Origin: a virus
Taxonomy: Duplodnaviria > Caudoviricetes
Direction: 5' to 3' (one strand)
Length of the DNA stretch: 64,000 nucleotides
Virus record (IMG/VR): IMGVR_UViG_3300027808_002667
Location: 16,300 to 80,299 of that record
Each line of letters begins with the position of its first letter. Position 1 is the first letter of the stretch. This document shows, piece by piece, positions 15,964 to 60,127 of the stretch. The notes under the pieces were generated by a model, which did no database searches, was not told the origin of the DNA, and was given only the letters and a program-made list of their open reading frames with translations. A program made the position numbers and the translations under genes.

Positions 15964-17024
15964 ACTTCCTCATAATGTTGTGCTTCTACGTACAGCGTTT
16001 TCAAAATACTTTTGAGACGATCTTTATCAGAATCAGTATCAACGCTATCTACATAGTTAGATAATAATGTCATTGTGTCTTCTAAGTCAATAGATTCATC
16101 AAGAGCTTCAGATTCAAATTCTGAAAAGTCTTCAATAATTTTCAATTCTATTGGGTTCTGTTTATATATTGATTCTATAAATCCGTCAAATTTCACAAAA
16201 TCTTTTTTGTTAACTACAATAATTTTTATTAGCTTAGATGCGAATCTAGTAATATCAATGTTTGCTACATCTTCTTTTTCATCGTCGTAATAATACTTCT
16301 CAAAAATTGTAAAAGGATTTTTAACAAATTCCAATTCTTTAGTTTCGGTATCAAAGATATGGAATCCTCGATCATCGTCAAAATCATTCCAGAATAATTG
16401 ATAGGGGTTACCTAAATATTGAACATTGCCTTTACCGTGTTTGTGATGAAAATGTCCCGAGCAAACTAAATCAAAATTCTTAAAAATAATAGGATCCATA
16501 CCCGAATGATCTAGATGTGCATCTTGACCTTTAAACATCACAAACCCAGATAACTCCAAATGACCAAAGCATATTTTTGCTTTAGTATTTTTAATCATGT
16601 CAGATGCTTCTTGAAAATTATCTGCACATAACCAAGGCATCATCAAAATACTAGTACCATCAAAATCTAATTCAATAGGGCTATCCCAGGCATTTATATT
16701 TGTGTACTCGCCTAATAACAAATCTGGCGAATTTACATCATTGGTATTTTTAAAAAACGTATCATGATTACCTACAATCATATCCATTTTAATATTGCGA
16801 GTTTTTATTTCGTCAAAGAAATAATTTTTGCAAGACTTTAATGAATTGAAATTAATATACTTTCTACGATCAAAGCAATCGCCCAAGTGTATTACATTAG
16901 TAATACCTCGTTTGTCTAATTCCGGAAAGAATATTTCACTATAGAATTTTTTAAAAAATGCATCAAATGGTTGAGAGTCGGATCTTGCCCCAAAGTGTGT
17001 ATCAGTTACCAATGCTATCTTCAT
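15960..17024 (-). CDS. gp47: Recombination endonuclease subunit gp47 (SbcD/Mre11-like)
   Basis: DTHFG, HLGD.FD, VGNHD and SGHFH phosphoesterase motifs. Confidence 0.95.
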   Translation of the reverse strand: MKIALVTDTHFGARSDSQPFDAFFKKFYSEIFFPELDKRGITNVIHLGDCFDRRKYINFNSLKSCKNYFFDEIKTRNIKMDMIVGNHDTFFKNTNDVNSPDLLLGEYTNINAWDSPIELDFDGTSILMMPWLCADNFQEASDMIKNTKAKICFGHLELSGFVMFKGQDAHLDHSGMDPIIFKNFDLVCSGHFHHKHGKGNVQYLGNPYQLFWNDFDDDRGFHIFDTETKELEFVKNPFTIFEKYYYDDEKEDVANIDITRFASKLIKIIVVNKKDFVKFDGFIESIYKQNPIELKIIEDFSEFESEALDESIDLEDTMTLLSNYVDSVDTDSDKDRLKSILKTLYVEAQHYEEV

Positions 17025-17954: not shown

Positions 17955-18644
17955 TTATTTTCTATCACCAAACAGTTGTAATAGATTAATAAACAAATTG
18001 ATAAAGTCCATATATAAAGTCAATGCTCCACGTACCTCTGCGCTATCGCTAGTTTCTATACTGAGTTCTTCTCGAATCTTCTGTGTGTCGTATGCTGTCA
18101 ATCCGAGGAAGATAATAATTGCCAATGCACTAATAACCATTTGCATTACAGTACTACCGATAAAGATATTAACGATACTAGCAATAATGATAGCAATCAA
18201 TCCAACAAACATAAATTTACCAAGACTATCTAGACTTTGTTTAGTAAAATAACCATATCCACTCATAACACCAAACAGCACTGCCGCACCCATAAAAGCA
18301 CTAACAATACTTCCCATGGTGAACACAGCAAAGATCATTGCAAAGCTTAATCCCATCAATGACGCAAAGCCATGTAGGCAAAGTTGCGCAACACTTTTAC
18401 TCGGATTTTTACCTAACACATAGCTAACACCAAAGATTGCTGCAAGTGGGGCAAAGATCACAATCCACTTTAATACACCCGTAAAAAAGAATTGTAGTAA
18501 CTCTGGACTAGTGCCTACAAAGTAACTGACAAACATTGATACAATAACAGCAAGACTCATATGCCCGTAGACACGACCCATTGCTGAGTTAATTTCGCTT
18601 GCAGAGCGATATGATATTCCGCCTGTGTAATTTGTTCCAAACAT
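17955..18644 (-). CDS. Bax inhibitor-1/YccA family membrane protein
   Basis: About 7 hydrophobic segments, GLTAYDTQKI and ALTLYMDFINLF. Confidence 0.92.
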   Translation of the reverse strand: MFGTNYTGGISYRSASEINSAMGRVYGHMSLAVIVSMFVSYFVGTSPELLQFFFTGVLKWIVIFAPLAAIFGVSYVLGKNPSKSVAQLCLHGFASLMGLSFAMIFAVFTMGSIVSAFMGAAVLFGVMSGYGYFTKQSLDSLGKFMFVGLIAIIIASIVNIFIGSTVMQMVISALAIIIFLGLTAYDTQKIREELSIETSDSAEVRGALTLYMDFINLFINLLQLFGDRK

Positions 18645-25786: not shown

Positions 25787-26635
25787 TTAAGTACCCCAAG
25801 CATTTTTGAATAATGGGATTTGTAATCTGTCGGAATATCTCCAACCTTTTTTCATTGCCAATTCTGCAACACCACGATTGTTCAATGAATACATTTCTTC
25901 TGTGCCACCACAAGGCATAATATAAACGACGCCGCCAAAACCAAATTTGCGATATTCATTTACTGCTTGTTCTGCTTCTTCGGCATCTTCTTTAGTTGCA
26001 ACTACAAATTTAAGGTATGTATTACCTAACAATTGATATTGTTGAATAACTTCTGGTCTAATTGCATCCTCCCATTTTTCACCGCTGATTGATAATTTAG
26101 GGGATACTGAAAATGTTATGTTGCCATAGTCTCGACCAAATCTTGTCCACTCCTGAAATAGATATTCATCGAACTCATCAGTTATAAGTTGCGTGCCATT
26201 AGTTTCAAAAGTAAGTTCTTTTAGACTTTGCATCTTTGGATGTTCTAAAAGATCTGGATAAGCTTTTTGCCAACCCAATAAAGGTTCACCGCCAGTAATT
26301 ACCAGATGTTCGTCACGCCATTCCTTGTACGGTAGCGTATCCACAATAGCATCGGCAATCGAATCAGTAGAAAGAACGGGAGACAAATGCTTAAAACGAG
26401 GATCCCAAGAAGCATAACTATCACAACCCGTAGACACCAAAGGTAACGAACCATATTCTTTATACTTAGAAGGGTCAACATTGTTTGCTTCATTACTAAG
26501 TTCTCCCTTAGGCATCCCAAAGCCAGCACATTTAAAGTTACAACCAAACGTTCTCAAAAACACTGAAGGCACGCCCATATAGCGACCTTCACCCTGTATG
26601 CTATAAAATAATTCTGCAATCTTAATTTTGCTCAT
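25787..26635 (-). CDS. queE: 7-carboxy-7-deazaguanine synthase (radical SAM)
   Basis: ELFYSIQGEG, FLRTFGCNFKC...GCDS, VITGGEPLL, FETNGT and SVSPKL. Confidence 0.93.
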   Translation of the reverse strand: MSKIKIAELFYSIQGEGRYMGVPSVFLRTFGCNFKCAGFGMPKGELSNEANNVDPSKYKEYGSLPLVSTGCDSYASWDPRFKHLSPVLSTDSIADAIVDTLPYKEWRDEHLVITGGEPLLGWQKAYPDLLEHPKMQSLKELTFETNGTQLITDEFDEYLFQEWTRFGRDYGNITFSVSPKLSISGEKWEDAIRPEVIQQYQLLGNTYLKFVVATKEDAEEAEQAVNEYRKFGFGGVVYIMPCGGTEEMYSLNNRGVAELAMKKGWRYSDRLQIPLFKNAWGT

Positions 26636-45151: not shown

Positions 45152-45477
45152 TATTTTGTTACTCCTGGATTTACGGTAACTATACCTTCTGTTATTCTTA
45201 TAACACTATTAGCATTATATGCTTCAACATCATATAGGTATCTGCCTGCTACTAAATTTGTAGTAACGGTTGAATCTAAATTCAAAGATACTATTCCATT
45301 TGCAACATCTGTAATTTGTGAAGTAAAACTTATAGCGTTTGCGCTATAATATGAACGTCGTAGTTGAGATCTTACAGCATACCCCGTCAATGAGGTGGGT
45401 GTTTTATTGTCTATATAATAAACACTTGTAGTAAAGCTTGCGCCTTGATCTATATTTAAATTTTTAGTTGTAGCCAT
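45151..45477 (-). CDS. Putative virion structural protein
   Basis: NLNIDQGASF, QLRRSY, GRYLYDVE and RITEGIVTVNPGVT pattern. Confidence 0.6.
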   Translation of the reverse strand: MATTKNLNIDQGASFTTSVYYIDNKTPTSLTGYAVRSQLRRSYYSANAISFTSQITDVANGIVSLNLDSTVTTNLVAGRYLYDVEAYNANSVIRITEGIVTVNPGVTK

Positions 45478-45671
45478 TATAGCCCGTTATTTTTTATTTC
45501 GTTGTCAACTAATGTCATTAAATCATCGTTTATTGTTGTGTGGATTCCCGATAATATAACTCTTACTTTGTCTTTAACTTTCTGCAATGAACCCACGGTT
45601 TCATAAATTTCTGCAGTTATAGTTGTAGTATCCGCAACATGATCTGCGGTAAGTTGTGTAATATTAATCAT
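45477..45671 (-). CDS. Hypothetical protein
   Basis: Short ORF with overlapping start/stop junctions on both sides. Confidence 0.5.
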   Translation of the reverse strand: MINITQLTADHVADTTTITAEIYETVGSLQKVKDKVRVILSGIHTTINDDLMTLVDNEIKNNGL

Positions 45672-46150
45672 TTGAATCTTCCGTAATAAATTCTATATGC
45701 TAAGTTAATTATGTCATCGCCAGCAATATTAATAAATCCTTGTCGGTCAAACTTGTGCTTGCATACTATTTTTAAAATTCCAGGTTCAACTATTGTTGTT
45801 ATAATAGATGAACCAAGATACAATCCTGTACTAGGTTGTATAATTTCTCTAATCATAACTGAACCAGACCCACTAATTACAGAACTTCCTGAACCTGCAA
45901 CCCCACCATTTACTTTATAAAATGGCATAACAAAGTAGTCATCAGTATTTATTAAAGAATTATTAATCAGAATAAATTCGTCAGAACGATCTACATAGTT
46001 GGCAGTTGGACTTAACGCTAATACTTTTGGAATATTAATAACGCCCGGTGTGTTATACAGTATATGTGGCATTCTTCTATTCAAAGAAAACTTAGTATTT
46101 CCCGACCTATCGGTTATATTGAATGCGCCAGAATTTAAAGAAATACCCAT
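45668..46150 (-). CDS. Hypothetical tail-fibre-associated protein
   Basis: Beta-rich ORF in the tail fibre cluster. Confidence 0.5.
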   Translation of the reverse strand: MGISLNSGAFNITDRSGNTKFSLNRRMPHILYNTPGVINIPKVLALSPTANYVDRSDEFILINNSLINTDDYFVMPFYKVNGGVAGSGSSVISGSGSVMIREIIQPSTGLYLGSSIITTIVEPGILKIVCKHKFDRQGFINIAGDDIINLAYRIYYGRFK

Positions 46151-47292
46151 TATTGAATTCCAAGATAAACTAAATTGCCTGTTATCTCCACGCTTCCGTT
46201 TAGGAAATAATTAGTTGTGTTATATTTGTATGTTAAAGAAGAACCAAGACCAGCAAGAGTTTCTCCCTGGGGCCAAATAATAACGTCTGTCTGTAATGTG
46301 ACCGCACCATTTCGTTCATCATATAAACCACCACTTTGAGGATCCTCGCCACTAGCATTTTCTATAGTTCTGCCTTCATTATAACCAGTTGTTATATAGT
46401 GAATAGTTGCATTATAAGTATCATATCCGTACAATGATCTAATATCTGCATATTTGTTTAAATACGCAATAGGATCAAACGTAATTGTTCTATCACCTTT
46501 TTCATTTGCATAATGTAATTGACCTTTAGTGTAATCTGATCCGTATGCAAGAATTAAATCTGTATAACTAGCAATATATCTTAATGCATCCGCGGGTGAA
46601 ATATAAAATAAGTTTATTGGCAATACACCGTTTGTTCCTTCAGGTTCTCCCGGAATACTATTTAAATATGAGTTAGGATTTATAGTTGTCGGTATTGAAG
46701 TTATTTCCTCATTTCCGGAAAGACCTCTTAAGAATAGATTTAAATCTGTTGGTATATACTCATAAACACCATTTACTAAATTTGCAGTATACAATAAATT
46801 TTTGCTAATTTCTATAGCATATCCTAAATCATTTGGTTGTTCTGTATAAACGTATTTGGAACCAACTCTTTCCCAATTATAATATGTATACTTTGTTTGT
46901 TTAGTAATCAACCCTGTGAATGTTTGACCACCTACAAAGAATTGAAAAAATCCTGTTCTAACAGGTGGCTTATCTAATAGTAAAAGATTAATAAATGTAT
47001 TAGTATTTAAATCACCGTTAACAGAATAGTTTTCTATAAATGGTCCTAATACTGGAACATCCGGTCCAATATTTTCTCTTTTACTTATTTGACTGTAATC
47101 TGTAATCTTTATACCGGTCTGCGTTTCTTGATACAATCGCAAATCATTAGACTGTAAAGTTTTAGTAAAAGCGTAGTTTGCCGCAGATGAATATTGAGAA
47201 GTATTTTTGTAAAGATAACTATTGTCTGTACTAAATACATTACCCATTGAAACAAAATCTTGGGTTAAATTTAAAAGATATACATTAGCCAT
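46150..47292 (-). CDS. Tail accessory protein with bacterial-surface-protein-like repeats
   Basis: Two repeats, ALRYIASYTDL...HY and FDPIAYLNKYADI...HYITTGYNEGR; start moved to the ATG at 47292. Confidence 0.55.
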   Translation of the reverse strand: MANVYLLNLTQDFVSMGNVFSTDNSYLYKNTSQYSSAANYAFTKTLQSNDLRLYQETQTGIKITDYSQISKRENIGPDVPVLGPFIENYSVNGDLNTNTFINLLLLDKPPVRTGFFQFFVGGQTFTGLITKQTKYTYYNWERVGSKYVYTEQPNDLGYAIEISKNLLYTANLVNGVYEYIPTDLNLFLRGLSGNEEITSIPTTINPNSYLNSIPGEPEGTNGVLPINLFYISPADALRYIASYTDLILAYGSDYTKGQLHYANEKGDRTITFDPIAYLNKYADIRSLYGYDTYNATIHYITTGYNEGRTIENASGEDPQSGGLYDERNGAVTLQTDVIIWPQGETLAGLGSSLTYKYNTTNYFLNGSVEITGNLVYLGIQ

Positions 47293-47293
47293 A

Positions 47294-47797
47294 TTAGAAA
47301 GATGGTACCGATGCTGTATTTTCAAACGCTAACAATGTGTATCTTCTTGTTAGTGTTGTTAATGAATCTGTATTAACAATATTTCGTTCTTTAATATAAA
47401 ATTTAGTACTATCCATTGCTAATGATACAATCCTAAATGAATTGTTATTTACAATTTGTACATATGTGTGTCCTGCTATAATTTCTCTTGTGTCATAATC
47501 TATTAAAATTGCAGCAGGGACATAGCCAAAATTGTGTATTGCTATAGTATACTCATTTGTATTTTTAGTTGTTACTGTTGGATCGGGGTCCGCGGTAACT
47601 AAAGAATAATTTTGAACAAAATCTGTTTTCTGTATTATATTTAAATAGTCGAATCTAGTATCAAAATATATTCTATTCAAATATGTTGTTGGATTTGTCA
47701 ATGGTAAATTACTACCCTGTTGTCCCGTGGGATTATTGAAGATAGATACTACCTTTTTACCACCAGTTGTGCCCGCCCACAAAACATTAGTTGTCAT
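47294..47797 (-). CDS. Hypothetical tail-fibre-associated protein
   Basis: ORF directly after the tail fibre; resembles 45668..46150 in composition. Confidence 0.5.
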   Translation of the reverse strand: MTTNVLWAGTTGGKKVVSIFNNPTGQQGSNLPLTNPTTYLNRIYFDTRFDYLNIIQKTDFVQNYSLVTADPDPTVTTKNTNEYTIAIHNFGYVPAAILIDYDTREIIAGHTYVQIVNNNSFRIVSLAMDSTKFYIKERNIVNTDSLTTLTRRYTLLAFENTASVPSF

Positions 47798-49407
47798 ATT
47801 TCAATTCTGATAAATTTACTGTTTAAATCAATAACCATTCTACCATCAGTTGATCTTAAAATTCCTGAAGTAATAGTGCCAGCATTTTGAGAAACTTCAG
47901 ATAATGCGTTTGCCGTTACTGTAACACCGGTAAAAATATTTGCAACTAATTGAGATCTAGTAATAGTACCACTTACAATTTTTGTTCCACTAACAGAATT
48001 GCTTGCAATTTCGGTTCCTGTTATTGAACCAGGTTGTATTTTGCCAGAAGTAACTGCGTTTGTTCCTAATTTAATAGATGTAACAGCCCCACTAGCTAAT
48101 TCTCTTGTTGTAACAGTATTGCTTACTAATTTTTCTCCGGTAATAATATTGGCTAAAATTTTAGATGTTATAACTGCGTTAGATGCTAATTCTGTACTAC
48201 CTACTTGTCCTGCATTTAAAACAATATTTGTTACAGTACCACTTACGCCTGGGGAATAAAAATCCCAACTGGTTTTAGTTGTATTTAAAATATAGCTAGT
48301 ACCACCTACAATAATTAAATCGCCAGGGTTGTATAATGTTACATCTGATGGCAATGATGCTAATGTTCTAACTCTTGCTGTGCCAGTATTTGCTGTAAAT
48401 TGTTGTATTGTATTCCAACCACCAGAATAGATATATAACCCCGGATCTATACCAGATGTTTTTCTAAACAATTCAAACGCGTTTGCTGTTGCAGGTAACG
48501 ATCCACCTGCAGAAATTCCGCCACCTGTACCAGAAGAACTAGAAATATAGTCGCTTAGATTTTTCCAAGCGCCACCAATAAAGATATATGCAATTGTCCC
48601 TACTACAACTGTTCTACCTAAATAATTTCCTGCATCACCAACTACTGGTAATGAAACTAAAACTTCTAAACCTGACGGTGCGCTAGATGTTATAACACTT
48701 GATAATGTTTTCCATTGACCAGAAATAAACAAATACGGTTTGGCATTTGCTGTTTCATAGAAGACGGTGCCTTCTGGTGCTGTTTGAGGTTTAACCGCAC
48801 CTATAGCAAATGCAGTATCGCCTCTAAATCTTACCCATCTAGAATCAGAACCAGCCAATCTTGCAATTGCAGAATCTGCCGGCAATCCTGTACCATTTCC
48901 TGTGGGGTATTTAGAATAGACCCAAACATCTCCAGAATTGAATACTATTCTACCCTCATAGTTACCCAATGACGGCAAAGAAGAAACTACAGGAATACCA
49001 TTAACAGTTACATTCGCAGTACCGGATCCAGTAACAACAGTAATGTTTGCGCCACTTACGCCGCCAGTAAATGCGGCTAATCTAGCTAACACATAATCTT
49101 GTGTTGCCAATTCATTTGTGTACCATTTAATAGTACCGTTCTCATTTAATATTAGAGAATCTGCGCCGTTTAAAGAAAAGCCAATAACACCAGAGGCTTG
49201 TCTGTACATTCCGGTGTCTTTATCGCCTTGCCAAGTATAACCCGGTAATATTTTAGAATCAGATCCATGTCCTACAACCTGCCCGCCAGTATAAAGCGAA
49301 TTAAAATTGTCGTTTACTTTGATGAAGGCATCGCGAAGTAAATCGCCGTCTCCGCTATTAGGTGTTGTTCCTACAAGAACATTTGGTAGATTTTTTGGGG
49401 CAGCCAT
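47794..49407 (-). CDS. Tail fibre protein
   Basis: N-terminal attachment motif VGTTPNSGDGDLLRDAFIKVNDNF; C-terminal 10-aa repeats (ITGEKLVSNT, VTTRELASGA, VTSIKLGTNA...). Confidence 0.75.
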   Translation of the reverse strand: MAAPKNLPNVLVGTTPNSGDGDLLRDAFIKVNDNFNSLYTGGQVVGHGSDSKILPGYTWQGDKDTGMYRQASGVIGFSLNGADSLILNENGTIKWYTNELATQDYVLARLAAFTGGVSGANITVVTGSGTANVTVNGIPVVSSLPSLGNYEGRIVFNSGDVWVYSKYPTGNGTGLPADSAIARLAGSDSRWVRFRGDTAFAIGAVKPQTAPEGTVFYETANAKPYLFISGQWKTLSSVITSSAPSGLEVLVSLPVVGDAGNYLGRTVVVGTIAYIFIGGAWKNLSDYISSSSGTGGGISAGGSLPATANAFELFRKTSGIDPGLYIYSGGWNTIQQFTANTGTARVRTLASLPSDVTLYNPGDLIIVGGTSYILNTTKTSWDFYSPGVSGTVTNIVLNAGQVGSTELASNAVITSKILANIITGEKLVSNTVTTRELASGAVTSIKLGTNAVTSGKIQPGSITGTEIASNSVSGTKIVSGTITRSQLVANIFTGVTVTANALSEVSQNAGTITSGILRSTDGRMVIDLNSKFIRIEI

Positions 49408-49411
49408 ATGG

Positions 49412-49618
49412 TTAACTTAAATTTAAATGGTTTTTAATTTTATCAATTTCCGCTTTTAACATATTTATTTCGTCTTTCATATCCTGAATTAGTTTGGTCT
49501 GTTTTCTTTTTTGCTTGTACTCAATTAAAGCATGAGTATTAGTATTAAGAATTGCAGAACTTGCTGGGTCTACAACATACCCAGGATCGTTTTCTACGGG
49601 AATATATCTTGAATTCAT
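49412..49618 (-). CDS. Small conserved T4-like protein
   Basis: YIPVENDPGYVVDPASSAILNTN followed by a coiled coil. Confidence 0.55.
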   Translation of the reverse strand: MNSRYIPVENDPGYVVDPASSAILNTNTHALIEYKQKRKQTKLIQDMKDEINMLKAEIDKIKNHLNLS

Positions 49619-49619
49619 T

Positions 49620-51338
49620 TTATAATAATGAAGTTGCTACTAAGTTTTTAATCTTAGGTAAATAAACTGGATTGTTTGCGTAGAACACTATCTTAACTTG
49701 ATAATTTGCAAAAGTTTCATATGTGGACGTTATTGCAACATTTGAAACTAAGTTTGCAGAGTTTGAATATGTCAAAGCTGGTTCTAATAGTCTGTATGTT
49801 TCTTCAGTAAATAAATCGTCATTTGTCCCCGCATACGATTTACTCACAGGTGAAACCAATGGAAGTTTAATAAAAGGTCTTGTCTGTATACCGCCAACAA
49901 AACTTTTATCGTTTCTAGATAAAACTCTAACAAAAACTTCGATATCTGTACCAATTTTTCTATTGACATTTACCTTTACTTCCATCCCAGTGGAGTCAAA
50001 TTGGTCTGCAAGCGATACAACTTTACTAATATATCTTGCCTGTGCTGTTCCGTGATTTGCAGCCAACTCAGATGTAGAAATATCTGTACTATAAGGCAAT
50101 ACGTTGTTTCTAAATATTTGAGCTTTCATCAACTGTTTATCTAAGAATGGCGCAACATCTTTAGATTTTGTTGTCAATGAAACTTCTAATTTTAAATCGC
50201 CCTTGTCTTTTAAAGATTGTCTTCCTGTTAAATTTAATTCCGAACCAGGAATAATATCGGTAAATTTTGTTTTATCTCTGGAGTTAGTATCTTCAGTTGT
50301 TTGTATTTTATACGTAACTTTTGCTGTATCACCCAACGCAATTTCTGTACTTAACAAACGAATTCTATTATAATCTATTTCAGCAAGAGCCGGCGTTGTC
50401 ATTTCAAAAGTTACTGTACCAGGATCAAATTTTGCTTTACCTAACATAAAAGTCAAATCTTCATTTTCATCACCCAACCAGTCTGTAGTATTTTGTGCTT
50501 TAAATAATCTACCAGCAAACGGTTGCTTAACTGTTTTACCATCACCTGTTTTTGCAGACAATAATTGATACTTGTCTGATTTAGTATATACACAGAATGC
50601 ATATTCGCCAGGTTTCAAATATATTGGATGAGCAAAACCAAATGTTGTTGCTTTTGCTCCGACCGTTGCATCATATACATTTACATCCGCCGGTACTTTT
50701 GAAGATGTCGTGCCAGACATATATTCTGTTGTGGACGGTTTGCTACCAGACATAGGTCTCAATTCTATACTTACAGGTAACTTATCGTCTTTAGTATAAA
50801 AGAATAAATTAATGTAAGTTAAAACAATGCCCAATGGATACGTGCCTGCATCTATTGTAAATGTTTGAGATAACGGATCCAATCTTTTCTGAGTATTATT
50901 GGGATCTGCCGAAGATCCCAATGGAGAAGTTCTAAATTTTTCTGTTGTTCTTAGTGCAATTGTACCACCTTGTTCTGGATCTACGATATTTAATCCATGA
51001 TTCATTAAGGTGGTTTCAGAAATATACTTACATTTTTCTATACCATCTGCACTATCACCAAATGTTAGACGAATCTCACCAACATTGAATTTAAATTTGC
51101 CTTCGGTACTGGGGATATACACAAAACCAAGTGCACTACCCAATTGATCAGTAGTAATAGTATCACCTAATAATGCACCAGATGTTACCGGTGCGGTAAA
51201 AGGTGTAATATTAACCCCGTTCACATAAGTATAAATTTTTATACCCGGTGGCATCTGCGCCACCGTAAAAGACATAACCTCGGATCCTGCGTAGATTGGT
51301 ATTTCCGCATCTCTGGTTGATGTTATATTTGTCGCCAT
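49620..51338 (-). CDS. Baseplate/virion structural protein, C-terminal half of a DUF4815/VrlC-like protein
   Basis: DPLSQTF, FAHPIYLKPGEY, QPFAGRLFKAQN..W...EDLTF and ARYISKVVSL. Confidence 0.7.
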   Translation of the reverse strand: MATNITSTRDAEIPIYAGSEVMSFTVAQMPPGIKIYTYVNGVNITPFTAPVTSGALLGDTITTDQLGSALGFVYIPSTEGKFKFNVGEIRLTFGDSADGIEKCKYISETTLMNHGLNIVDPEQGGTIALRTTEKFRTSPLGSSADPNNTQKRLDPLSQTFTIDAGTYPLGIVLTYINLFFYTKDDKLPVSIELRPMSGSKPSTTEYMSGTTSSKVPADVNVYDATVGAKATTFGFAHPIYLKPGEYAFCVYTKSDKYQLLSAKTGDGKTVKQPFAGRLFKAQNTTDWLGDENEDLTFMLGKAKFDPGTVTFEMTTPALAEIDYNRIRLLSTEIALGDTAKVTYKIQTTEDTNSRDKTKFTDIIPGSELNLTGRQSLKDKGDLKLEVSLTTKSKDVAPFLDKQLMKAQIFRNNVLPYSTDISTSELAANHGTAQARYISKVVSLADQFDSTGMEVKVNVNRKIGTDIEVFVRVLSRNDKSFVGGIQTRPFIKLPLVSPVSKSYAGTNDDLFTEETYRLLEPALTYSNSANLVSNVAITSTYETFANYQVKIVFYANNPVYLPKIKNLVATSLL

Positions 51339-51339
51339 A

Positions 51340-54300
51340 TTAAATTCCTACTAAAGAATAGTTTACTGATTTATAACCGTTGCTCTCAATTTGGACAGCT
51401 TTAGGATAACGCTTTTCAACTTCGCGAGCCATATACCCTTCAAACACTCCGTGTCCCGCAATATCTTTGAATTCTTTTCTATATTCATATTGATATAGAT
51501 TTAATCCGTTTGGCATTTTTCTAACAAATTTAACGTTTGTTTTCATTCTTTCATCTGAGAATAATTTTTTAATGCCTTTCCAAACAGCTTTTACTACTTT
51601 AACTGCAACATACGCAACAGCAACAACAGCAACAACTTGAATAAGTACTGGTGCAGTACTAATATATGCAGCAAAAGTTGAAGCACTACTAGCAATTGCC
51701 GCAGTTACACTTCCCAAAATAGGTACACCGGTTGTTGCTGCAGCTAATGCACTTGCTCCTTGTGCAATTCCAGCAAAGACGAACGTTGCAGCACCCCCTA
51801 CAAGTTGTGTTAGTCCTGTTTGTAAACCCGATAATGTACTAGTAAAAGGTTGATTAAAAATGTTTCCTAGTGTTCCGGTTAAACTTGATACCCCAGCTTG
51901 AAATCCCGCAGCGCCCGAAGCTAGAAGTTGACTATTTAATGCATTTATAGCAGCAAATGCACCAGAGCCACCTGCGGTTGCGCTGGCTACTACAGTATTG
52001 GAGCCAGGTAACCAATCCGCTACAAATCTAGCTAGTCCATCTTTTATATATGTAAAACCAGAATTTACAAATTTAGATAGACCATCTATAGAACTTACTG
52101 CGTCAACAAAACTTAAACCAACATCTCGAACAGCACCCCACGCTACAGATAATACACTTTCTCCAAGATATGCTGCATGAAAGGCGGATCCCCCAGTAAC
52201 AGCGCCCGCTGCTACAAGACTATATGCTGAAATTATTTTTGCTGCAACTAAACCACCAAATAATAACAATCCGCCAGTTAACCACATATTAATATTAAAA
52301 GAATTTTTCTTTGAAATTTCTGCTCTACCCACACCATCATTAATAGCACCAGGGTTAACATTAATAACACTATTTGCCTCTAATTGTGATGCAAATACTT
52401 CATTGACATATTTCATAGTAATAAGATCATTTATTTCTAAAATGTCTATATCTGCTACCACATTTAAATCTATATTGTATACTGCAAAACCAGGGAAACA
52501 TTCTTGCTCGTCAGTATCAACAGCAACACCAAAATAACCACTTGTGAGATCTGCTTTATCGGTACCGGTAAAATCCTCAACTAAAATACCAGATTTCAAC
52601 AATGTATCACCGTTGTCATTTGTAACAATAGATCTCAAATTTGCAATTTCAATACTTTGTAATTTTACTGCTTTATCTAAATTAATTGTAAGAGTTTCAA
52701 TTTTACCTATGTCGCGCATAGTGAAACGCTTATTATCATCATATGTTATTTTAACATCAAAAGAACTTGTTGCATATGGTGGTACTTCTAAAACTGCAAG
52801 ACTCAATTTGCTAATATCTGAGATATCGTCAATTTCTTTTGGATTTGCAGATTCGACGCCTTGTTGTACATAGAATTTATTATATGGAGAATTATAATTT
52901 TGCAAGGTATTAGTTATATAAATTCTATCTTTTCTGCCAAGATAATAAGTAACATCTGCTTCAGTATTTACTGTGGATGTTGGTATAATTGAAGAATCAA
53001 AATTATAATATGGACTATCATCAATTCTTCTCGGTCTAAAATCTATCACATCTCTCAGATTAAATTCATTTGAATCAACAACCGATCTATAAGTGGGTAT
53101 TCTAGAATAATAAGAGGAAGGATATGATTGTACTGTAGCTGGCCCTTCACCTGAATGTGTGAAATAATCAAATAATACTAAAACATTTCCTGGAGGATTT
53201 GTGGCAGAAATAAATTTAACAGTACCGTGATCATAGAAAGTATCTGTTTGACCATTATTAAGAATATAATTCGAGGTAGTCTCAGGATTTAACGACGTCC
53301 ATGAATTGGCATTTATTGGAGAAACATTAGACGATGGCGCAATTGCAACATACGCTGTACTATCTAAAGTTACTATATCATTATAATTATATGATGTTGT
53401 AGATACCCAAGAACCAAGATATTTTTCAACATTTGTTAATGCATATAAATTCTTAAATACTGTAATATCAGATTTTCCTAAAGAATAAGCATAATCAGCT
53501 AGTGCAATATTTACAATTTTTGCATGATTTTCAACTAAAGTTTTTGTTCTTGGTTGTAAATCATCACTTTCAATTTTTAAAGATACATCCGCAATACCTG
53601 TGAATGAAGGGTCATTCATATTAATGGTTAGTGTGGCAGAATCGCCTGCAATTGTTGTTGTGCCTCTTTCAAAATTATAAGCACCTATGTTTGTATTAGA
53701 TGTTTCTCCACTTTTTACCAACACAATAAAGTTTGTTCTTGCAGTACTTGAAGGAATTATACCATCACCTAATGCAAATGTTTCTGGTACAGACAATGTC
53801 TTAGAAAACACACCGGAACTAAACACAGCATTAGTAAAAACTCTTATGTATTCAGTTCTAATAGTATCAACATTTTTTACATATGTTTTATTAATGGGAA
53901 ATAACAGTCGTTCTGCTGGTCTATTAGAATCAAATATTGTAGTTACGCCAGATGTAGCAATACCATCACTTGCAATATCTGCATAGAAGAAAGGTGTAGA
54001 ATATGTGGCTGAAGTGCCATGTGATGTAAGGCCGTTTGATACACCGATAACACTTCGTATGTGTTTTACGTTAACCAAACCATCATAGAATGGACTACCA
54101 TTTTCAACTTGTAAAAATGATTTAACATTAGTTAATGCTCTAGGTTTATCTGTTGGATCGGCGGTAGGTGAAGATACTGCCGCAACTACCTCGGCCTTGA
54201 CTTTTTCAATGTCTTTATTATTATTGATCCAACGATTATACCAATAGTATACACCGCCAGTATCAGGTTCTCTGAATAATCCATAATACGGAGTATTTGC

Positions 54301-55974
54301 TGGTCCATATCGCCCGAAAAGTTCATTTGACGTATAAATTACGTTTGCAATATATTGCCCATCGGCAACCGATGCTTTATATTTTGTAGACCAATCTGTC
54401 CATGTTGCAGGAACTTCTTTTACCGGAGAATATAAGTTATAGAATAATTTATATTGAGGTGCAACATTAACACCTCCGATATAACTGTCATATTCAATGT
54501 TTTTATATGCAAGCGTACCAATTAGTGTATTTGCGCTTGTTGGATTTTTCACACTATGCAATTCTAAAAATATTGAGCTTGCAGTTAGTTCTGTAGGTGA
54601 AATAATCTTATACTGCAAATTAGCTAATTTAAAATAATTACCCTGTGTAGTATTAATATTATAACCAGTCTTTGTTTCTGTCAAAGTAGACTTAGGAACA
54701 GAAACTTCTGTAGCACCTACAGTTCTTACTGGCAATCCCCCGACATATGCTTTGCCCTCAGATATAGAGAATTTTAAATCCGTATCTGTTTCTAACCCAA
54801 GAGTTGGTGAGATTTTAAATTGATTTACTACATAGCTTCCAGATTCATCATATGTTCGTTCTGCTAATTTTTTATCTAAATCGGCATCTGCAGTTAATTC
54901 TGCAAGGAATTCAATCTGTCCTTTATTGTAATTTAATAAAGGAATTACATCGCCGGCAACGGCGGTTTCAACTTTACCGTCTTCATTAACGTCTAAACTT
55001 ACAAGGTTTAGATCTACTTTTAATCTATCAGCGCCAGTTGCAAAATAATTTGAACTACCAAACGCAGGATCTAATAATGTAGTATCATCCTCGCTTGTAA
55101 TAATTTGTTGATCACTTAAATAACCAACCAATTTTGTTGGATATGCTGTTTTTTTATCCGGTACAATTCTTTGTAATGATGCTTTAACAAAAAATCCATA
55201 TTTGTAAAAGATTGCATCATCCTGTGATACTATAGTTGTTGGATTTGTTGGTTTGGTTACATAAGCAACATTTTGCCCACCAATAACAACATCCGGTGCA
55301 TCACTAATTTCTATTTCTAAAGTATTTACAATTTTAGTGACATACAGTTTCTTTGTTATAGAAGGATGTACTAATAAATCACCTACTTCAATAATTGTAC
55401 TTGGGTTTGTTAGTACAACCGTTTTAGAAAATTGTTTAAGTGTAGATATTGCATTTTTTGTAATATCGGTTTCGGTAATTGCAGTGTAGCTGGGTATTGC
55501 TTTGTTTAAAGCATCAGTGTAATCAGTATAAAAATACAGCTCGTCATTTTCTGCAAACATACCATCATTTACTATATTGAATTTCTTTAAAGAAATAACA
55601 ATACTAATAGGGTCACCTAAATTAGGATCGTCTGCTTCATACACAAACTCTACATATCCTAAAACTTCCGATGTTGCCGTAGTAACATACGTGTTTAATA
55701 AATTTGAAACAGTAATTGGTGTGCCGCGTGAATCTGTATTTTTTAGACGAATTGTTCTTGCATCAAGATTTACCGACGGGGCAGGTCCTGAAACTTTACT
55801 ACCATCTTTGAATAGAAAATTACCTACAGACTTAATTTGATTTTGTAATATTGTTTGAGATTGTGTTAGTTCTCTTGCTTGTACTGCAACACCGGGTTTG
55901 AATAACACTCGAACGAAGTTTTTATCTTCATCGAAGTCATCAAAGTATGGTGAAACATTTGTTAATACAGTCAT
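51340..55974 (-). CDS. Large baseplate protein (DUF4815/VrlC-like N-terminal half) with a hydrophobic domain and a C-terminal peptidase S74-like domain
   Basis: SPYFDDFDEDKNFVRVLFKPGVAVQARELTQ, ERTYDESGSY, DFRPR and RFTMRDIG; C-terminal FSDERMKTNV..GLNLYQYEY..GYMAREVE. Confidence 0.8.
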   Translation of the reverse strand: MTVLTNVSPYFDDFDEDKNFVRVLFKPGVAVQARELTQSQTILQNQIKSVGNFLFKDGSKVSGPAPSVNLDARTIRLKNTDSRGTPITVSNLLNTYVTTATSEVLGYVEFVYEADDPNLGDPISIVISLKKFNIVNDGMFAENDELYFYTDYTDALNKAIPSYTAITETDITKNAISTLKQFSKTVVLTNPSTIIEVGDLLVHPSITKKLYVTKIVNTLEIEISDAPDVVIGGQNVAYVTKPTNPTTIVSQDDAIFYKYGFFVKASLQRIVPDKKTAYPTKLVGYLSDQQIITSEDDTTLLDPAFGSSNYFATGADRLKVDLNLVSLDVNEDGKVETAVAGDVIPLLNYNKGQIEFLAELTADADLDKKLAERTYDESGSYVVNQFKISPTLGLETDTDLKFSISEGKAYVGGLPVRTVGATEVSVPKSTLTETKTGYNINTTQGNYFKLANLQYKIISPTELTASSIFLELHSVKNPTSANTLIGTLAYKNIEYDSYIGGVNVAPQYKLFYNLYSPVKEVPATWTDWSTKYKASVADGQYIANVIYTSNELFGRYGPANTPYYGLFREPDTGGVYYWYNRWINNNKDIEKVKAEVVAAVSSPTADPTDKPRALTNVKSFLQVENGSPFYDGLVNVKHIRSVIGVSNGLTSHGTSATYSTPFFYADIASDGIATSGVTTIFDSNRPAERLLFPINKTYVKNVDTIRTEYIRVFTNAVFSSGVFSKTLSVPETFALGDGIIPSSTARTNFIVLVKSGETSNTNIGAYNFERGTTTIAGDSATLTINMNDPSFTGIADVSLKIESDDLQPRTKTLVENHAKIVNIALADYAYSLGKSDITVFKNLYALTNVEKYLGSWVSTTSYNYNDIVTLDSTAYVAIAPSSNVSPINANSWTSLNPETTSNYILNNGQTDTFYDHGTVKFISATNPPGNVLVLFDYFTHSGEGPATVQSYPSSYYSRIPTYRSVVDSNEFNLRDVIDFRPRRIDDSPYYNFDSSIIPTSTVNTEADVTYYLGRKDRIYITNTLQNYNSPYNKFYVQQGVESANPKEIDDISDISKLSLAVLEVPPYATSSFDVKITYDDNKRFTMRDIGKIETLTINLDKAVKLQSIEIANLRSIVTNDNGDTLLKSGILVEDFTGTDKADLTSGYFGVAVDTDEQECFPGFAVYNIDLNVVADIDILEINDLITMKYVNEVFASQLEANSVINVNPGAINDGVGRAEISKKNSFNINMWLTGGLLLFGGLVAAKIISAYSLVAAGAVTGGSAFHAAYLGESVLSVAWGAVRDVGLSFVDAVSSIDGLSKFVNSGFTYIKDGLARFVADWLPGSNTVVASATAGGSGAFAAINALNSQLLASGAAGFQAGVSSLTGTLGNIFNQPFTSTLSGLQTGLTQLVGGAATFVFAGIAQGASALAAATTGVPILGSVTAAIASSASTFAAYISTAPVLIQVVAVVAVAYVAVKVVKAVWKGIKKLFSDERMKTNVKFVRKMPNGLNLYQYEYRKEFKDIAGHGVFEGYMAREVEKRYPKAVQIESNGYKSVNYSLVGI

Positions 55975-55983
55975 ATCTTTTCC

Positions 55984-57282
55984 TTAAAATTCTATTACAA
56001 GATGTAAATTATCTGTTTGATCTATTGTTCTAGTTACGGGGTTTCTATTTTCTAAATAGAGTATTTCGCCTGTATCTTGCATTACTTCTGATGATAATGA
56101 TTGTGTAACTATTGCTGTTGCTCCGGAAGTCCTGCCTATTACAGACTCTCCGATTGTAAATGATTTATAATTTTCTGTTGTCCCAAATGATTGAATATAT
56201 CTAATATATCCGTTTCCTGAAACCACATTTGATGTTACTGCGTAAGCATTTGCCTTACTAGTAATACCAACAAGGTATTCGTTGTTTATAAATGTACCAT
56301 TTACGTTACTTACATTTATACCAACCAATCCAGATAATGTTGCAGCGTTTGCCAAAACGCCACCCGGACTCATTGGATTCTTAACTATACCTACTTTTCT
56401 AAAAGAAAACCCTGTGGGAAAATCTCCATATCCTTCGTTGTATTCTGCTTTTACATTTAACATAACATAATATGCGCCCAATTCTGATACAGGATCATAC
56501 CCGTGACCATTAACAGGACTCAATATTGCTTTAATGTTTGCCAATCTACCTGTGCCTTGATTATCTGAAACATACGCATTTGCAAATCTATATTTTGATC
56601 CAGCATTGGTATATACGAAATCATAGATAACGCCCAAATTTTGTTTGGCTGAAATATTTGCATTTACACCATCGCCTTCAACGGTGACCTTAGAAAATAC
56701 TGAATAATCTAAGCCGCCGTTATAAATTTTAATATTTTCTATAGCACCATCTTTTGCAACTGTTGCAACATCGGGATTTGTTCTTACGGGCATCCAATTG
56801 TCAGTTAAGAACTTTAATTTGTCTGATGTAGATACACTATATAAGTATTTCCACTTATAACTATCAGATGTAGTAAATATATTTAAACTTTTTCCGGTAG
56901 GTTCTACTGTAGATACAGATCCACCTACATTGTCTATACATTTATACACATCAAGATCTCTATTGATAACATAGAAATTCTTTGTTAATAATTCTATGTC
57001 ATCGTGGTCATATTCAGCATATATTGTTTGAGCCGCCCAATTTATACGCTTAATGACATTAACCATATTGGTAGATATTATGCGTTTTAAACTAACAATT
57101 TCATCCCATGTTTTAGAATAATTTTGTTGCGAATCTTTAGGGTCCGGCGGAAAATCGTTAGCGCCCCAGGGGTCGGGTTTTGCTAAGAACATGTATAATG
57201 TGTTTTCTCCGGAAACAGTATAACTGTCCAAGAAACTCTTAGCATTACTGATTTTAAATTTGTTAGTTACTATATTAGGCAT
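55984..57282 (-). CDS. gp8: Baseplate wedge protein gp8
   Basis: YVINRDLDVYKCIDN, DSYKWKYLY and GEILYLENRNPVTR. Confidence 0.9.
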   Translation of the reverse strand: MPNIVTNKFKISNAKSFLDSYTVSGENTLYMFLAKPDPWGANDFPPDPKDSQQNYSKTWDEIVSLKRIISTNMVNVIKRINWAAQTIYAEYDHDDIELLTKNFYVINRDLDVYKCIDNVGGSVSTVEPTGKSLNIFTTSDSYKWKYLYSVSTSDKLKFLTDNWMPVRTNPDVATVAKDGAIENIKIYNGGLDYSVFSKVTVEGDGVNANISAKQNLGVIYDFVYTNAGSKYRFANAYVSDNQGTGRLANIKAILSPVNGHGYDPVSELGAYYVMLNVKAEYNEGYGDFPTGFSFRKVGIVKNPMSPGGVLANAATLSGLVGINVSNVNGTFINNEYLVGITSKANAYAVTSNVVSGNGYIRYIQSFGTTENYKSFTIGESVIGRTSGATAIVTQSLSSEVMQDTGEILYLENRNPVTRTIDQTDNLHLVIEF

Positions 57283-57292
57283 CTATTATTTA

Positions 57293-58750
57293 TTATAAGT
57301 TAAATAGCGATGTTACGGAATCTACTCTCAAATTACTGGATGCACTGCTTGCACGCAATGCAGGATTATCTATAGTGATTGAGGAGAACGTATCTATTTC
57401 TGTATCGTTTGTTACTTTTACTTCCAACGACTTTGCATTATACGGCATTGTTTCATTATTTATTTCGCTAAAAAGACTCAATCCTGCAGGATGTAGTACA
57501 GAGCGAATACTGCTACCCCATTCTTCTATAGACTTCGATGAACGTATAACATACGAAAATGGTTGATAAAATGCAATTGAATCTTCTGTTGCATATTGAG
57601 TCTTACCCTGCAAATACATATTTTCTGATAGTTGTCCCGATGTATCTTTCCAATATGATTTTGCAATAGCCATACCGCCTATATTAGCACGCAATACTGC
57701 GGGATCCAAAAAGCTAAGTATTACATTTCCAGTATGTGTAGCACCCGAAGCTAAATATGTATTTCCCGAATCTATGATTTCAATAATAGTAGATGACGCA
57801 TTCCTATTTGGTATTTCTATATAGAAAAATTCAGATTGCTCAAACAAATAATCGTCTCTAATTTCAAGAGTCAAATTTGCAATGTTTGAACTGATTGCAG
57901 GAAAATACCCATTTAAAGACCCTATTCTATCAAAATCACCTAAACTAATATCTCCTTTTTGCCCTATAATTCTCCAAGGAATTATAGTTCCGTCGGGTAT
58001 ATTTGAGGAAACTAATGTTATAGTGACATTGCTACCTTCAACTACTCTGTTCTTATTTGTTATAAGAGTAAAATCGGGTATAGTCGCAATCGATGTATCT
58101 AATACTGATATTGTACTTGATAATTGTAAAGAATATGGAAAATCTGGATTCAATATTAAAACTATTGTTTCTATTCCCTCAGTTGTCTTATCGTCTAATA
58201 AAGTTAAAGTAACATTTGCTTGCGTTTGATTTGTAGTGCCGGTTGGCAAAAATGTAGCAAGCCCCGTAAGAACACCTTCTGCAATATCATCTGCTTGTAT
58301 ACCAACTATTCTATATGGCACAACTGTACCAGGAGCAAGGTCTACTGCCTTTATAAAGAAGTTAGCATAACTTCCTTCATATATTGCAGAAGAAACTGAT
58401 GTTATGGTAAATTTAACTAAATTGTTTGATGTTGTTTTAGACGTGTCTTTTATAATAATGCCAATATTTTCATTGCCACCGGAAGCAGTCAATCTTAAAA
58501 CAAATGTTTCATCAAATTCTGTTTTTAAATCTTTCTTGGTATCTAAAGTTATTTTGCCTTGATTGCTACGAACATTAAAATTTCCAGACAACGAAGTTAA
58601 CCCGGTAAAATCATCTGTACCTATACCAGTACCCGTAATTGTAAATGGCACCAATGTGTTATTAGGTACGCCGACAGTATCCAATATAATTGTTACATTG
58701 GAACCTTCGTTTACCGTAGATGAAGTTGTTGATAGAGTATACGTTGCCAT
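57293..58750 (-). CDS. gp7-like C-terminal baseplate protein with Calx-beta/Ig-like repeats
   Basis: Three (V/I)xEGS repeats, then FYQPFSYVIRSS..EWGSSIRSVLHPAG (gp7 C-terminal motif). Confidence 0.65.
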   Translation of the reverse strand: MATYTLSTTSSTVNEGSNVTIILDTVGVPNNTLVPFTITGTGIGTDDFTGLTSLSGNFNVRSNQGKITLDTKKDLKTEFDETFVLRLTASGGNENIGIIIKDTSKTTSNNLVKFTITSVSSAIYEGSYANFFIKAVDLAPGTVVPYRIVGIQADDIAEGVLTGLATFLPTGTTNQTQANVTLTLLDDKTTEGIETIVLILNPDFPYSLQLSSTISVLDTSIATIPDFTLITNKNRVVEGSNVTITLVSSNIPDGTIIPWRIIGQKGDISLGDFDRIGSLNGYFPAISSNIANLTLEIRDDYLFEQSEFFYIEIPNRNASSTIIEIIDSGNTYLASGATHTGNVILSFLDPAVLRANIGGMAIAKSYWKDTSGQLSENMYLQGKTQYATEDSIAFYQPFSYVIRSSKSIEEWGSSIRSVLHPAGLSLFSEINNETMPYNAKSLEVKVTNDTEIDTFSSITIDNPALRASSASSNLRVDSVTSLFNL

Positions 58751-60127
58751 TTAAAATCCAGGATATTTGTATCTAATTGATCTTACATTTGGAATAGATG
58801 TAATTACAGCATTATGTGAAGTGTTGTCAATTGGACTAAACACATTGCCGGTATAATATGCGTTTATATTCTTTTCTCTGACCAACCCGTGTTGTTGTGG
58901 GAATGTTAGTGTAACTTGTCCATTTTTAACAATATATGTCCCTGTTAAAGATTCAGTGGGTAACCCGGGCACAATTATTGTATTTGCGCTATAATTTAAT
59001 CCAGGTTCAATAATTTCTATATTTGTGATTGAACCAAATCTATTTACACTATTAATTTTTGCTTTTGCAAGAATACCTGTCCCGTCAGTAATAGTTATTA
59101 CATTGTCTTTTTTATAACCCAACCCACCGTCAACAATATCTATTCTACTAACAATTGAATATAGTCTTGCGGTTAATTTAGTTGTTGTGAATTGTTCGCC
59201 CGTGAGTAATATAGTTTTTGTTGCCGTAATTTGTTCGTCTGCTAAAAACTCTCCAATAATACTAGTTGTATCTAGCATTAGTTCATATACATCAAATCCG
59301 TTTAAATCAATTTTGATTACTTTATTGACAATTGCCTTTGCCTTTGACGTTATACCTACTATTTCAGTATTTTCAAAATCAAAAATGTTTTGTCTACCGG
59401 TAATTTGTTTAACCCGTAAGGCTCTCGGAGTAATCAATTTTCCATCAGATGATTTTAAAACTATATCATAAGGATAGAAGAAATCTATAGATTCTCTATA
59501 CAAAACATTGAACAATAATCTATATGCCGGCTCAGTTCCTTTTTTGCTATAGATTTCTCGTATTTTCTTTATTAACAACCTGTTGTTTGCACTGTTAGAA
59601 ACAGTTAAATCGCTTGCATAATTTTGAATAAATCTAGTAACTAAATTTTCTGTTGTTTCATCTATGTCGGCGTATTTAGAAATGTCTTGTAGTATTTCCT
59701 GCGCTTGATTGTTTTGTTCTAAAAATTCATAATATGCTTTTATAAATGTAACAAACATTCCATAGTCGGATTGTATAAAATCTGGTAATTGATCCTCAAC
59801 TAAAATCGACAATCTATTTTGTATTCGTTTAAAGGGATTTTCTGCACCATTGCCATCGTGCAAGGTATAAATTAAAGGATCTTTTAATTGTGCTAAATTC
59901 TTAAAACTATCGGGAATATAAAATTCACCTGTTCTACCATAGAATGTTAGTGTTTGATAAATGCCTTTGCCTGTTCTATCTATATCCGCTTGTATTGCTT
60001 CTTTACGTGTAGTGTATAACGGATAAAACCATCCTTCTTGATAGCCAGCAAAACTTTCGGGTCTAGATGTCCCGTATAATTTTAAAGGGCCCAATAATGC
60101 ATCGAGCGCAAAAATATTTTCTGCCAT
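58751..60127 (-). CDS. Baseplate wedge initiator gp7-like, N-terminal part
   Basis: EDQLPDFI, FIKAYYEFLE, IYSKKGTEPAYRLLFNVLY and SSDGK. Confidence 0.7.
   Translation of the reverse strand: MAENIFALDALLGPLKLYGTSRPESFAGYQEGWFYPLYTTRKEAIQADIDRTGKGIYQTLTFYGRTGEFYIPDSFKNLAQLKDPLIYTLHDGNGAENPFKRIQNRLSILVEDQLPDFIQSDYGMFVTFIKAYYEFLEQNNQAQEILQDISKYADIDETTENLVTRFIQNYASDLTVSNSANNRLLIKKIREIYSKKGTEPAYRLLFNVLYRESIDFFYPYDIVLKSSDGKLITPRALRVKQITGRQNIFDFENTEIVGITSKAKAIVNKVIKIDLNGFDVYELMLDTTSIIGEFLADEQITATKTILLTGEQFTTTKLTARLYSIVSRIDIVDGGLGYKKDNVITITDGTGILAKAKINSVNRFGSITNIEIIEPGLNYSANTIIVPGLPTESLTGTYIVKNGQVTLTFPQQHGLVREKNINAYYTGNVFSPIDNTSHNAVITSIPNVRSIRYKYPGF

Follow-up and report, generated by a model that had tools for sequence, protein, structure and literature searches.

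The stretch of DNA considered here is a window of 64,000 nucleotides from a tailed virus (Duplodnaviria; Caudoviricetes), positions 16,300 to 80,299 of IMG/VR record IMGVR_UViG_3300027808_002667. It encodes a baseplate tripod protein, of the family known as VrlC or DUF4815, that is divided between two adjacent open reading frames (ORFs) on the minus strand. The first half (51340..55974, 1544 residues) ends in an Ala/Gly-rich hydrophobic helical module (residues 1207-1472, 51559..52356) and a minimal Peptidase_S74 chaperone/autoprotease domain (residues 1473-1544, 51343..51558), while the second half (49620..51338, 572 residues) is made up of beta-sandwich distal domains. Tripods and S74 domains are both known; what appears to be new is that a gene split, a hydrophobic helical module and a minimal S74 cap occur together and are conserved as a set. 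The literature searched on DUF4815 and S74 proteins gave no account of such an architecture, and we met the combination in no cultured phage. Our tentative suggestion is that the hydrophobic module may be an anchor of the baseplate in the host outer membrane, capped by the S74 domain until that domain cleaves itself off. This reading draws on sequence and on analogy with other phages, and we place it first among the explanations considered, while stopping short of calling it probable.

The tripod identity of the divided protein is supported by several comparisons. PF16075 (DUF4815) matches the first ORF with 152.8 bits against a cut-off of 30, and it also matches 30 of the 31 relatives. The profile phrog_358 (2056 positions) reaches both ORFs, its positions 7-1098 falling on the first and 1317-1614 on the second, and the VrlC protein of phage phiM9 (1737 residues) aligns in the same manner, residues 1-979 to the first ORF and 1092-1731 to the second. 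With hmmsearch, a single protein of solved structure is matched by the family profile: chain 0 of PDB 9EUF (E=7.5e-38, 1152 residues), which is described as a "DUF4815 domain-containing protein". The first-pass annotation had claimed that a DUF4815/VrlC-like protein was shared out between these two ORFs, and the matches to phrog_358, phiM9 VrlC and 9EUF, which cover both halves, bear this out. PDB 9EUF is the baseplate of Staphylococcus phage 812 (PMC13433997). We take chain 0 to be the gp119 tripod protein, because the gene order in phage 812 is gp117 arm scaffold, gp118 gp8-like and gp119 tripod, and because the chain occurs in entries holding inner tripods. Residues 1-63, 279-434 and 990-1214 of the first ORF align with 1-63, 102-247 and 388-597 of the tripod, and the third of these blocks ends at a common ...NVNP... 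motif. These blocks, along with the phiM9 alignment, mark out a conserved tripod core of residues 1-1206 (52357..55974, minus strand) that ends in ...INVNP.

A phmmer search of the PDB gave no match for the second half, and its link to the tripod needed structure comparison. AlphaFold2 folds the 572-residue protein entirely into beta-sandwiches, at a mean pLDDT (predicted local distance difference test) of 66. This model matches 9EUF chain 0 with a Foldseek E value of 1.1e-15 and a VIA-align Z score of 18.0 (339 residues aligned to chain residues 785-1151, root-mean-square deviation 9.0, 21% identity), the next unrelated match having Z=10. Overall, the first half corresponds to tripod residues 1-597 and the second half to residues 585/785-1151. 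Since the core aligns to this chain and the modelled distal half matches the same chain, the two ORFs are the proximal and the distal half of a single tripod protein.

In double-layered myophage baseplates, the tripod is a trimeric receptor-binding complex seated on the gp7-like arm scaffold next to gp8. The tripod trimer of phage 812 binds to loops of this scaffold, has carbohydrate-binding sandwiches and is strongly rearranged at contraction, when it deploys its C-terminal domains along its axis towards the envelope; it is a peripheral complex of the baseplate arms, not part of the central hub (PMC13433997). Phage 812 gp119 (9EUF and related entries; A511 gp106 type) has the same conserved N-terminus and core and the same distal beta-sandwich half, and likewise comes directly after a gp8-like arm-segment gene; in T4-like marine and rhizobial phages, DUF4815 proteins carry the label VrlC. 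The window protein differs from gp119 in being made as two polypeptides, the first of which ends in the hydrophobic helical module and S74 domain, and in having large insertions in its core (1206 residues versus about 597). Neither the module nor the S74 domain is present in the phage 812, phiM9, HTVC008M and cyanophage proteins that we examined. A carbohydrate-binding module, CBM_5_12, was detected in 10 of the 31 family members (best E 5.4e-5), which fits a receptor-binding role of the tripod; the window's own C-terminal fragment has no match to it.

The junction between the two ORFs reads ...GGA ATT TAA T ATG, that is, a TAA stop, one base and an ATG, just as the first-pass annotation had it. 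A scan of viral contigs provided 59 loci, and the split was checked at the 24 of these that have this architecture. In all 24, which are independent contigs, both halves are intact and a second-half homologue (549-634 residues, 50-96% identity) begins 0-4 nucleotides past the stop of the first half. The second half is translated from a start at that distance. In this lineage of uncultured marine T4-like phages, the gene is cut where a linker joins the conserved core to the distal beta-sandwich half, and the first half has gained the helical module. A survey of homologues found 32 protein clusters that retain the hydrophobic region and an ending of the form ...VKVV..VWKG.KKLF followed directly by SDERMK; these are mostly 1488-1624 residues long, with one of 1265, and are 36-86% identical in the C-terminal region. 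No fused form was seen among proteins of 849-2702 residues.

Could the split be an artefact, whether of misassembly, of a frameshift in the gene or of a pseudogene in decay? The sole point in favor of this is that such a split is unusual. The same split in 24 of 24 contigs, with both halves intact, rules out the assembly error that the first-pass annotation had named as a way for its reading to fail, and a conserved frameshift fusion is ruled out because the spacing and relative frame vary between loci. The shared C-terminus of the 32 clusters also stands against an artefact, as does the presence of the exact 1544-residue protein on contigs of up to 142 kb, and we give this explanation a negligible weight.

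Unsplit VrlC genes are found downstream of gp8 in phiM9 (1737 residues), HTVC008M (2001 residues) and a cyanophage (2542 residues). In phiM9 VrlC, a polar Thr/Ser/Arg-rich linker joins the two homologous blocks. Across the three unsplit proteins we found no hydrophobic window above 1.47 on the Kyte-Doolittle scale, no charge-free run longer than 36 residues and no S74 motif. The second half has a variable N-terminus that is not hydrophobic. A survey of pelagimyophages counts VrlC among the core baseplate genes and says nothing of a split (PMC7029224).

The first-pass annotation had pointed to an Ala/Gly/Val-rich hydrophobic segment at 51559-52290, and its composition is indeed extreme. Residues 1229-1472, encoded by 52290-51559, are 18% Ala, 12.5% Gly, 11% Val, 10.5% Ser and 10% Leu, and residues 1321-1458 form a run of 138 residues with no Asp, Glu, Lys or Arg, a length whose estimated likelihood by chance is about 1e-12; across 55 ORFs of the window, the runner-up among charge-free runs has 65 residues. 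Taking as membrane-grade a helix in which a window of about 19 residues exceeds the usual Kyte-Doolittle threshold of 1.6, we found two in the module. One, MWLTGGLLLFGGLVAAK... (residues 1230-1256, 52207..52287, minus strand), comes after a conserved GRAxxSKKNSFxxN motif and has a 19-residue mean of up to 1.95 (residues 1236-1254). The other, VLIQVVAVVAVAYVAVKVV (residues 1443-1461, 51592..51648, minus strand), reaches 2.57, with an Eisenberg mean hydrophobicity of 0.72 and a low moment. That value ranks third among 77 minus-strand ORFs in the window, and no other window ORF of at least 150 residues exceeds 1.61, save one of 229 residues. The two higher peaks, 2.97 and 2.78, belong to minus-strand ORFs at 26299-26547 (82 residues) and 17955-18644 (229 residues), which are probably membrane proteins. 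All 16 aligned relatives have a membrane-grade helix (Kyte-Doolittle 1.67-3.07), located 30-60 residues upstream of the Ser that begins the S74 domain.

The module is specific to this group of phages. A profile of the module alone, run against 1.84 billion representative sequences, found 17 proteins at E<=0.001, and since nearly all of these belong to the same family or are fragments, we consider the module to be lineage-specific. A search of the ESM Atlas gave no usable match for it. In an AlphaFold2 model of the C-terminal 329 residues the module is all helices, with pLDDT of about 55-74 in the better parts and below 50 at model residues 1-22 and 80-136; when this model was compared by Foldseek and VIA-align, the module gave generic helical bundles alone, with a best VIA-align Z of 7.5. 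The sister clades (loci L022, L026, L030, L032 and L035) have the same design, with modules of 140-292 residues. Across 30 relatives, mean identity to the window protein is 66% in the core, 50% in the N-terminal part of the module, 37% in its middle, 61% in the terminal helix and tail, and 76% in the S74 domain. The middle of the module has many indels and drifts in sequence and length, keeping only its composition; such fast divergence with retained composition fits a lipid-facing sequence better than a specific docking surface.

One protein from the representative library that is not phage-like, P0077 (619 residues), matches the module profile at E=2.7e-5. It has a repeat unit, AAATSGVPVVGQVTA, and three copies of AAATSGVPVVGQVTAxMASG, which resemble the conserved AAATTGVPILGSVTAAIASS motif of the module. 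We set this candidate aside as a module relative, the match being probably a coincidence of a short motif, with a truly shared short motif as the alternative.

At its C-terminus the first half carries what is very probably a genuine, if unusually short, S74 domain, as the first-pass annotation had proposed from the SDERMK motif. PF13884 scores 17.9 and 20.3 bits on the window protein by protein scan (cut-off 22) and 23.9 bits in a six-frame search of the record, and it matches all 31 relatives at E<=0.01, the best at 4.1e-9. SDERMK starts at residue 1473, giving an S-x4-K dyad of Ser1473 and Lys1478. The Asp and Lys are invariant in the relatives, and the Ser is replaced only by Cys, which is also a nucleophile (P0028, P0030 and L035). 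The S74 domain is the most conserved segment of the protein, even though it is presumably the part that is discarded. AlphaFold2 gives it pLDDT values of mostly 83-90, falling to 74-77 towards the C-terminal end.

Structural matches to known S74 domains are weak. With Foldseek, the domain matches the MyRF ICA domain at E 0.28 (probability 0.84-0.89), and a phmmer search of the S74 part against the PDB found at best the tail-fibre tip of phage S16, at E=0.56. In MyRF and endoNF, the catalytic dyad is a Ser and a Lys five residues further on; the cut falls directly before the Ser and requires the trimer (PMC8326128). The window protein resembles these in having S-D-x-R-x-K with its Ser-Lys dyad, and in carrying the domain at the C-terminal position of a presumably trimeric virion protein. 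MyRF has a long C-terminal coiled-coil helix that is the main drive for trimerisation (PMC8326128), whereas only 72 residues follow the Ser here and the model contains short helices with no such long helix. A further difference lies upstream of the domain, where S74 proteins of the endoNF and MyRF type have a triple beta-helix and the tripod has a hydrophobic alpha-helix. The S74 protein of phiM9, gp134, has no S-D-x-R/K-x-K site by pattern search. Given the conserved dyad, the fact that Cys is the only substitute for the Ser, the degree of conservation of the domain and the established mechanism, autocleavage between Phe1472 and Ser1473 is likely, and it would leave an end of ...KKLF.

The predicted new C-terminus is VAVKVVKAVWKGIKKLF (residues 1456-1472, 51559..51609, minus strand), a cationic amphipathic helix that is highly conserved within the window's clade. 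Its helical hydrophobic moment of 0.66 and net charge of +5 are reached by about 1 in 1000 shuffles. The first-pass annotation had described this helix as resembling an antimicrobial peptide. The cationic amphipathic character holds for the window and its clade, but it is not a family property: the tails of the sister clades are cationic, mixed or acidic, with a net charge as low as -2 to -4. Because the tail is acidic in some sister clades, and because it fits a coiled-coil heptad pattern (see below), an antimicrobial-peptide-like role is doubtful.

How might these parts work together? We suggest the following sequence of events. The S74 domain would set three C-terminal helices in trimeric register and then cut itself off between Phe1472 and Ser1473. 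Before cleavage it would act as a soluble cap, keeping the greasy end away from the membrane of the producer cell. In the virion, the hydrophobic bundle would lie on the threefold axis of the tripod, shielded by the trimer of second halves. Upon adsorption, the distal domains would swing away, much as the leg, anchor and hook domains of phage 812 do, and the hydrophobic tip would be driven into the host outer membrane, anchoring the baseplate. In canonical S74 proteins the domain is at the C-terminal end of a trimeric tailspike or fibre, and by analogy the new C-terminus here would be the host-facing tip. In phage 812, a peptidoglycan-binding hook has been proposed to have a comparable anchoring role (PMC13433997).

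We lean towards a membrane-directed role because the helices are membrane-grade, the region is poor in charge and the middle of the module keeps its composition only, and also because the phage 812 tripod deploys its C-terminal domains towards the envelope and the S74 domain is normally at the C-terminal end of a fibre. The membrane-like character is supported by podovirus S74 relatives that share a hydrophobic end (discussed below) and by the unsplit VrlC proteins of cultured phages, which have no such region. Membrane activity of the module is possible. Colicin pore-forming domains are soluble-to-membrane helical proteins, and they serve here as an analogy only, the shared idea being a very hydrophobic helix that is shielded by amphipathic helices until triggered; no sequence or fold match between the module and colicin pore-forming domains was found.

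Several observations weigh against an anchor in the membrane. Simple hydropathy estimates gave a divided answer on membrane insertion: the Kyte-Doolittle peaks are above 1.6, but a simplified Hessa-scale sum has its best window at about +1.9 kcal/mol and none below 0. The module is predicted, at moderate confidence only, to have helices of 21-38 residues packed in a generic bundle. The net charge of the tail is +3 to +5 in 13 of 16 relatives and -2 to -4 in the other three. In the window protein, five heptads follow one another without a break, with hydrophobic residues at a and d, and the five Lys of the tail all fall at b, e and f. This pattern is compatible with a soluble trimeric coiled coil that has its Lys outside, and the hydrophobic module could simply be buried. 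On such an explanation, which we hold to be a real possibility and rank directly after the envelope anchor, the module would be a structural hub, a buried trimeric bundle on the threefold axis that holds the separate second half non-covalently, with the S74 domain only registering and folding it and no contact with any membrane. The gene split creates a need for just such a non-covalent joint, and the heptad pattern of the terminal helix, the differing sign of the tail charge between clades and the generic bundle seen with AlphaFold2 and VIA-align are all in keeping with it, as is the known role of S74 domains as folding chaperones of trimeric stalks (PMC8326128). It is harder to reconcile with a module middle that diverges faster than either half and ranges in length from 140 to 292 residues, which is unusual for a specific docking surface, or with a Kyte-Doolittle value of 2.57 and a 138-residue charge-free run, which are extreme for a soluble virion protein; the variable, non-hydrophobic N-terminus of the second half also counts against it. 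The two ideas could also be compatible, if a hydrophobic helix is shielded by the other helices and by the trimer of second halves until triggered.

The remaining explanations rank lower, in the order given here. Membrane-grade helices might instead tether the tripod, or assembly intermediates of the baseplate, to the inner membrane of the producer cell, acting in morphogenesis and not in infection, and parts of T4 morphogenesis are membrane-associated. We think this improbable, as the S74 cut lies C-terminal to the module and so could not free the protein from the membrane, no signal peptide or N-terminal anchor is seen in the translation, and the 72-residue, Lys-rich, folded cap speaks against insertion as a tail anchor. 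More improbable still is the reading of the first-pass annotation, in which the module would be a translocon-like device for membrane penetration or DNA entry that carries an antimicrobial-peptide-like helix. The window's peptide is strongly amphipathic, with its charge of +5, and the module is large enough to cross a bilayer several times. However, tripods belong to the peripheral baseplate arms and are not hub, tube or tape-measure proteins (PMC13433997), a gp5-like hub protein has its own gene in the window, and sister clades do not keep the cationic character. The artefact discussed above comes last. The anchor in the host envelope thus stands at the head of this ranking, with the structural hub behind it.

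In sequence, the S74 domain is closest to the equally short S74 ends of podovirus proteins that carry an ejection or DNA-injection annotation. Pseudoalteromonas phage H6/1 gp17 and a protein of Vibrio phage PVA1, both from P22-like marine podoviruses (phrog_4287 and phrog_6121), have a short S74 domain like the one here, and such podovirus proteins resemble the tripod in having a long, charge-poor, Gly/Ala-rich region with a hydrophobic stretch immediately before the Ser. They differ from it in size, being 270-500 residues long or polyproteins, and in their podovirus head-completion gene context, and their low-complexity region is Gln/Asn-rich and less hydrophobic (maximum Kyte-Doolittle 0.3-1.6). 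The match of the window protein to phrog_4287 and phrog_6121 is confined to the S74 part, at about positions 320-387 of 392, and does not extend over the whole profile. In tblastn comparisons of the window protein with the podovirus proteins, 21-23% of the query was covered and no similarity was seen upstream of the S74 domain.

In the contig scan, small S74-ended proteins of 270-500 residues are encoded at loci L037-L060, at L002:3140-4216 (H6/1 gp17) and at L001:3413-4234 (PVA1, an ORF that is unannotated in KJ395778). Some of them have a podovirus ejection annotation, and, as in the tripod, a hydrophobic stretch rich in Gly/Ala runs right up to their short S74 domain. Podovirus-like contigs L045, L048, L054, L057, L056 and L061 encode proteins of 1460-2130 residues with one or two internal S74 domains; in L057 the S74 Ser are at about 383 and about 710, and in L056 an internal S74 is at 535. 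Each internal S74 domain follows a long charge-free Gly/Ala/Gln-rich region. These large proteins would be self-processing polyproteins, and to call them internal or ejection proteins would be a guess.

From this likeness one may speculate that a hydrophobic C-terminal helix followed directly by a short S74 domain is a reusable, safety-capped tip for membrane insertion, common to the tripods of this marine myophage lineage and to ejection-annotated proteins of marine podoviruses. In the producer cell, the greasy end would stay soluble and in trimeric register under its cap, which would then cut itself off; at infection, the exposed tip would insert in the host envelope. We regard this generalization as possible but doubtful, and hold it less firmly than the proposal for the tripod itself.

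The tripod genes lie in a recognizable baseplate neighborhood. On the minus strand, the gene order is gp5-like hub, gp6, gp7-like scaffold, gp8, the two tripod halves, a 68-residue virion protein, a fibre-like protein and the neck genes. The gp8-like baseplate arm-segment gene (55984..57282, PF09215; phrog_438 E=1.5e-107) is immediately upstream of the tripod. The order gp8 then VrlC is also found in phiM9, HTVC008M and a cyanophage, and the order gp7-like, gp8, tripod in phage 812 (PMC13433997). On the other side is the gene for the conserved 68-residue virion protein (49412..49618, minus strand; phrog_473 E=1.4e-12), a protein that comes after VrlC in related phages: small genes of 69-74 residues occupy this position in phiM9, HTVC008M and the cyanophage. 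The gp7-like arm-scaffold gene consists of two abutting minus-strand ORFs, 57293-58750 and 58751-60127 (458 and 485 residues), which match positions 7-277 and 507-745, respectively, of phrog_17744 (765 positions), and it may be a second split baseplate gene in this cluster.

About 4.5 kb (45152-49618 of the window) separate the tripod genes from a gp13-like neck gene, with ORFs of 68, 537 (fibre-like), 167, 391 and 160 residues. In pelagimyophages, a host-recognition cluster of about 45 kb has been reported at that position (PMC7029224). Within 45152-49618 we saw no gp12-like short tail fibre. The window belongs to a viral contig of 80 kb whose completeness is put at 45%. The nearest cultured matches to its large terminase are from Pelagibacter phage Mosig (52%), Methylophilales phage Melnitz (51%) and cyanomyophages (48%), and a megablast search of the region against cultured phages gave no match. 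By these comparisons, the virus is a marine T4-like phage with no close cultured relative.

The tripod (VrlC) is a core baseplate component of abundant marine T4-like phages, and how these phages fix the baseplate to the host envelope is largely unknown. The package of a gene split, a membrane-grade module and a cap that would cleave itself in the trimer offers a concrete hypothesis for lipid-directed anchoring. It would also widen the known uses of S74 domains, which have been described as chaperones of beta-helical fibres and which here would cap an alpha-helical hydrophobic tip. The same pairing in podovirus ejection-annotated proteins suggests that a more general design principle may be involved. 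If the capped-tip reading is true, it would amount to lipid-anchored, irreversible adsorption by a contractile-tailed phage.

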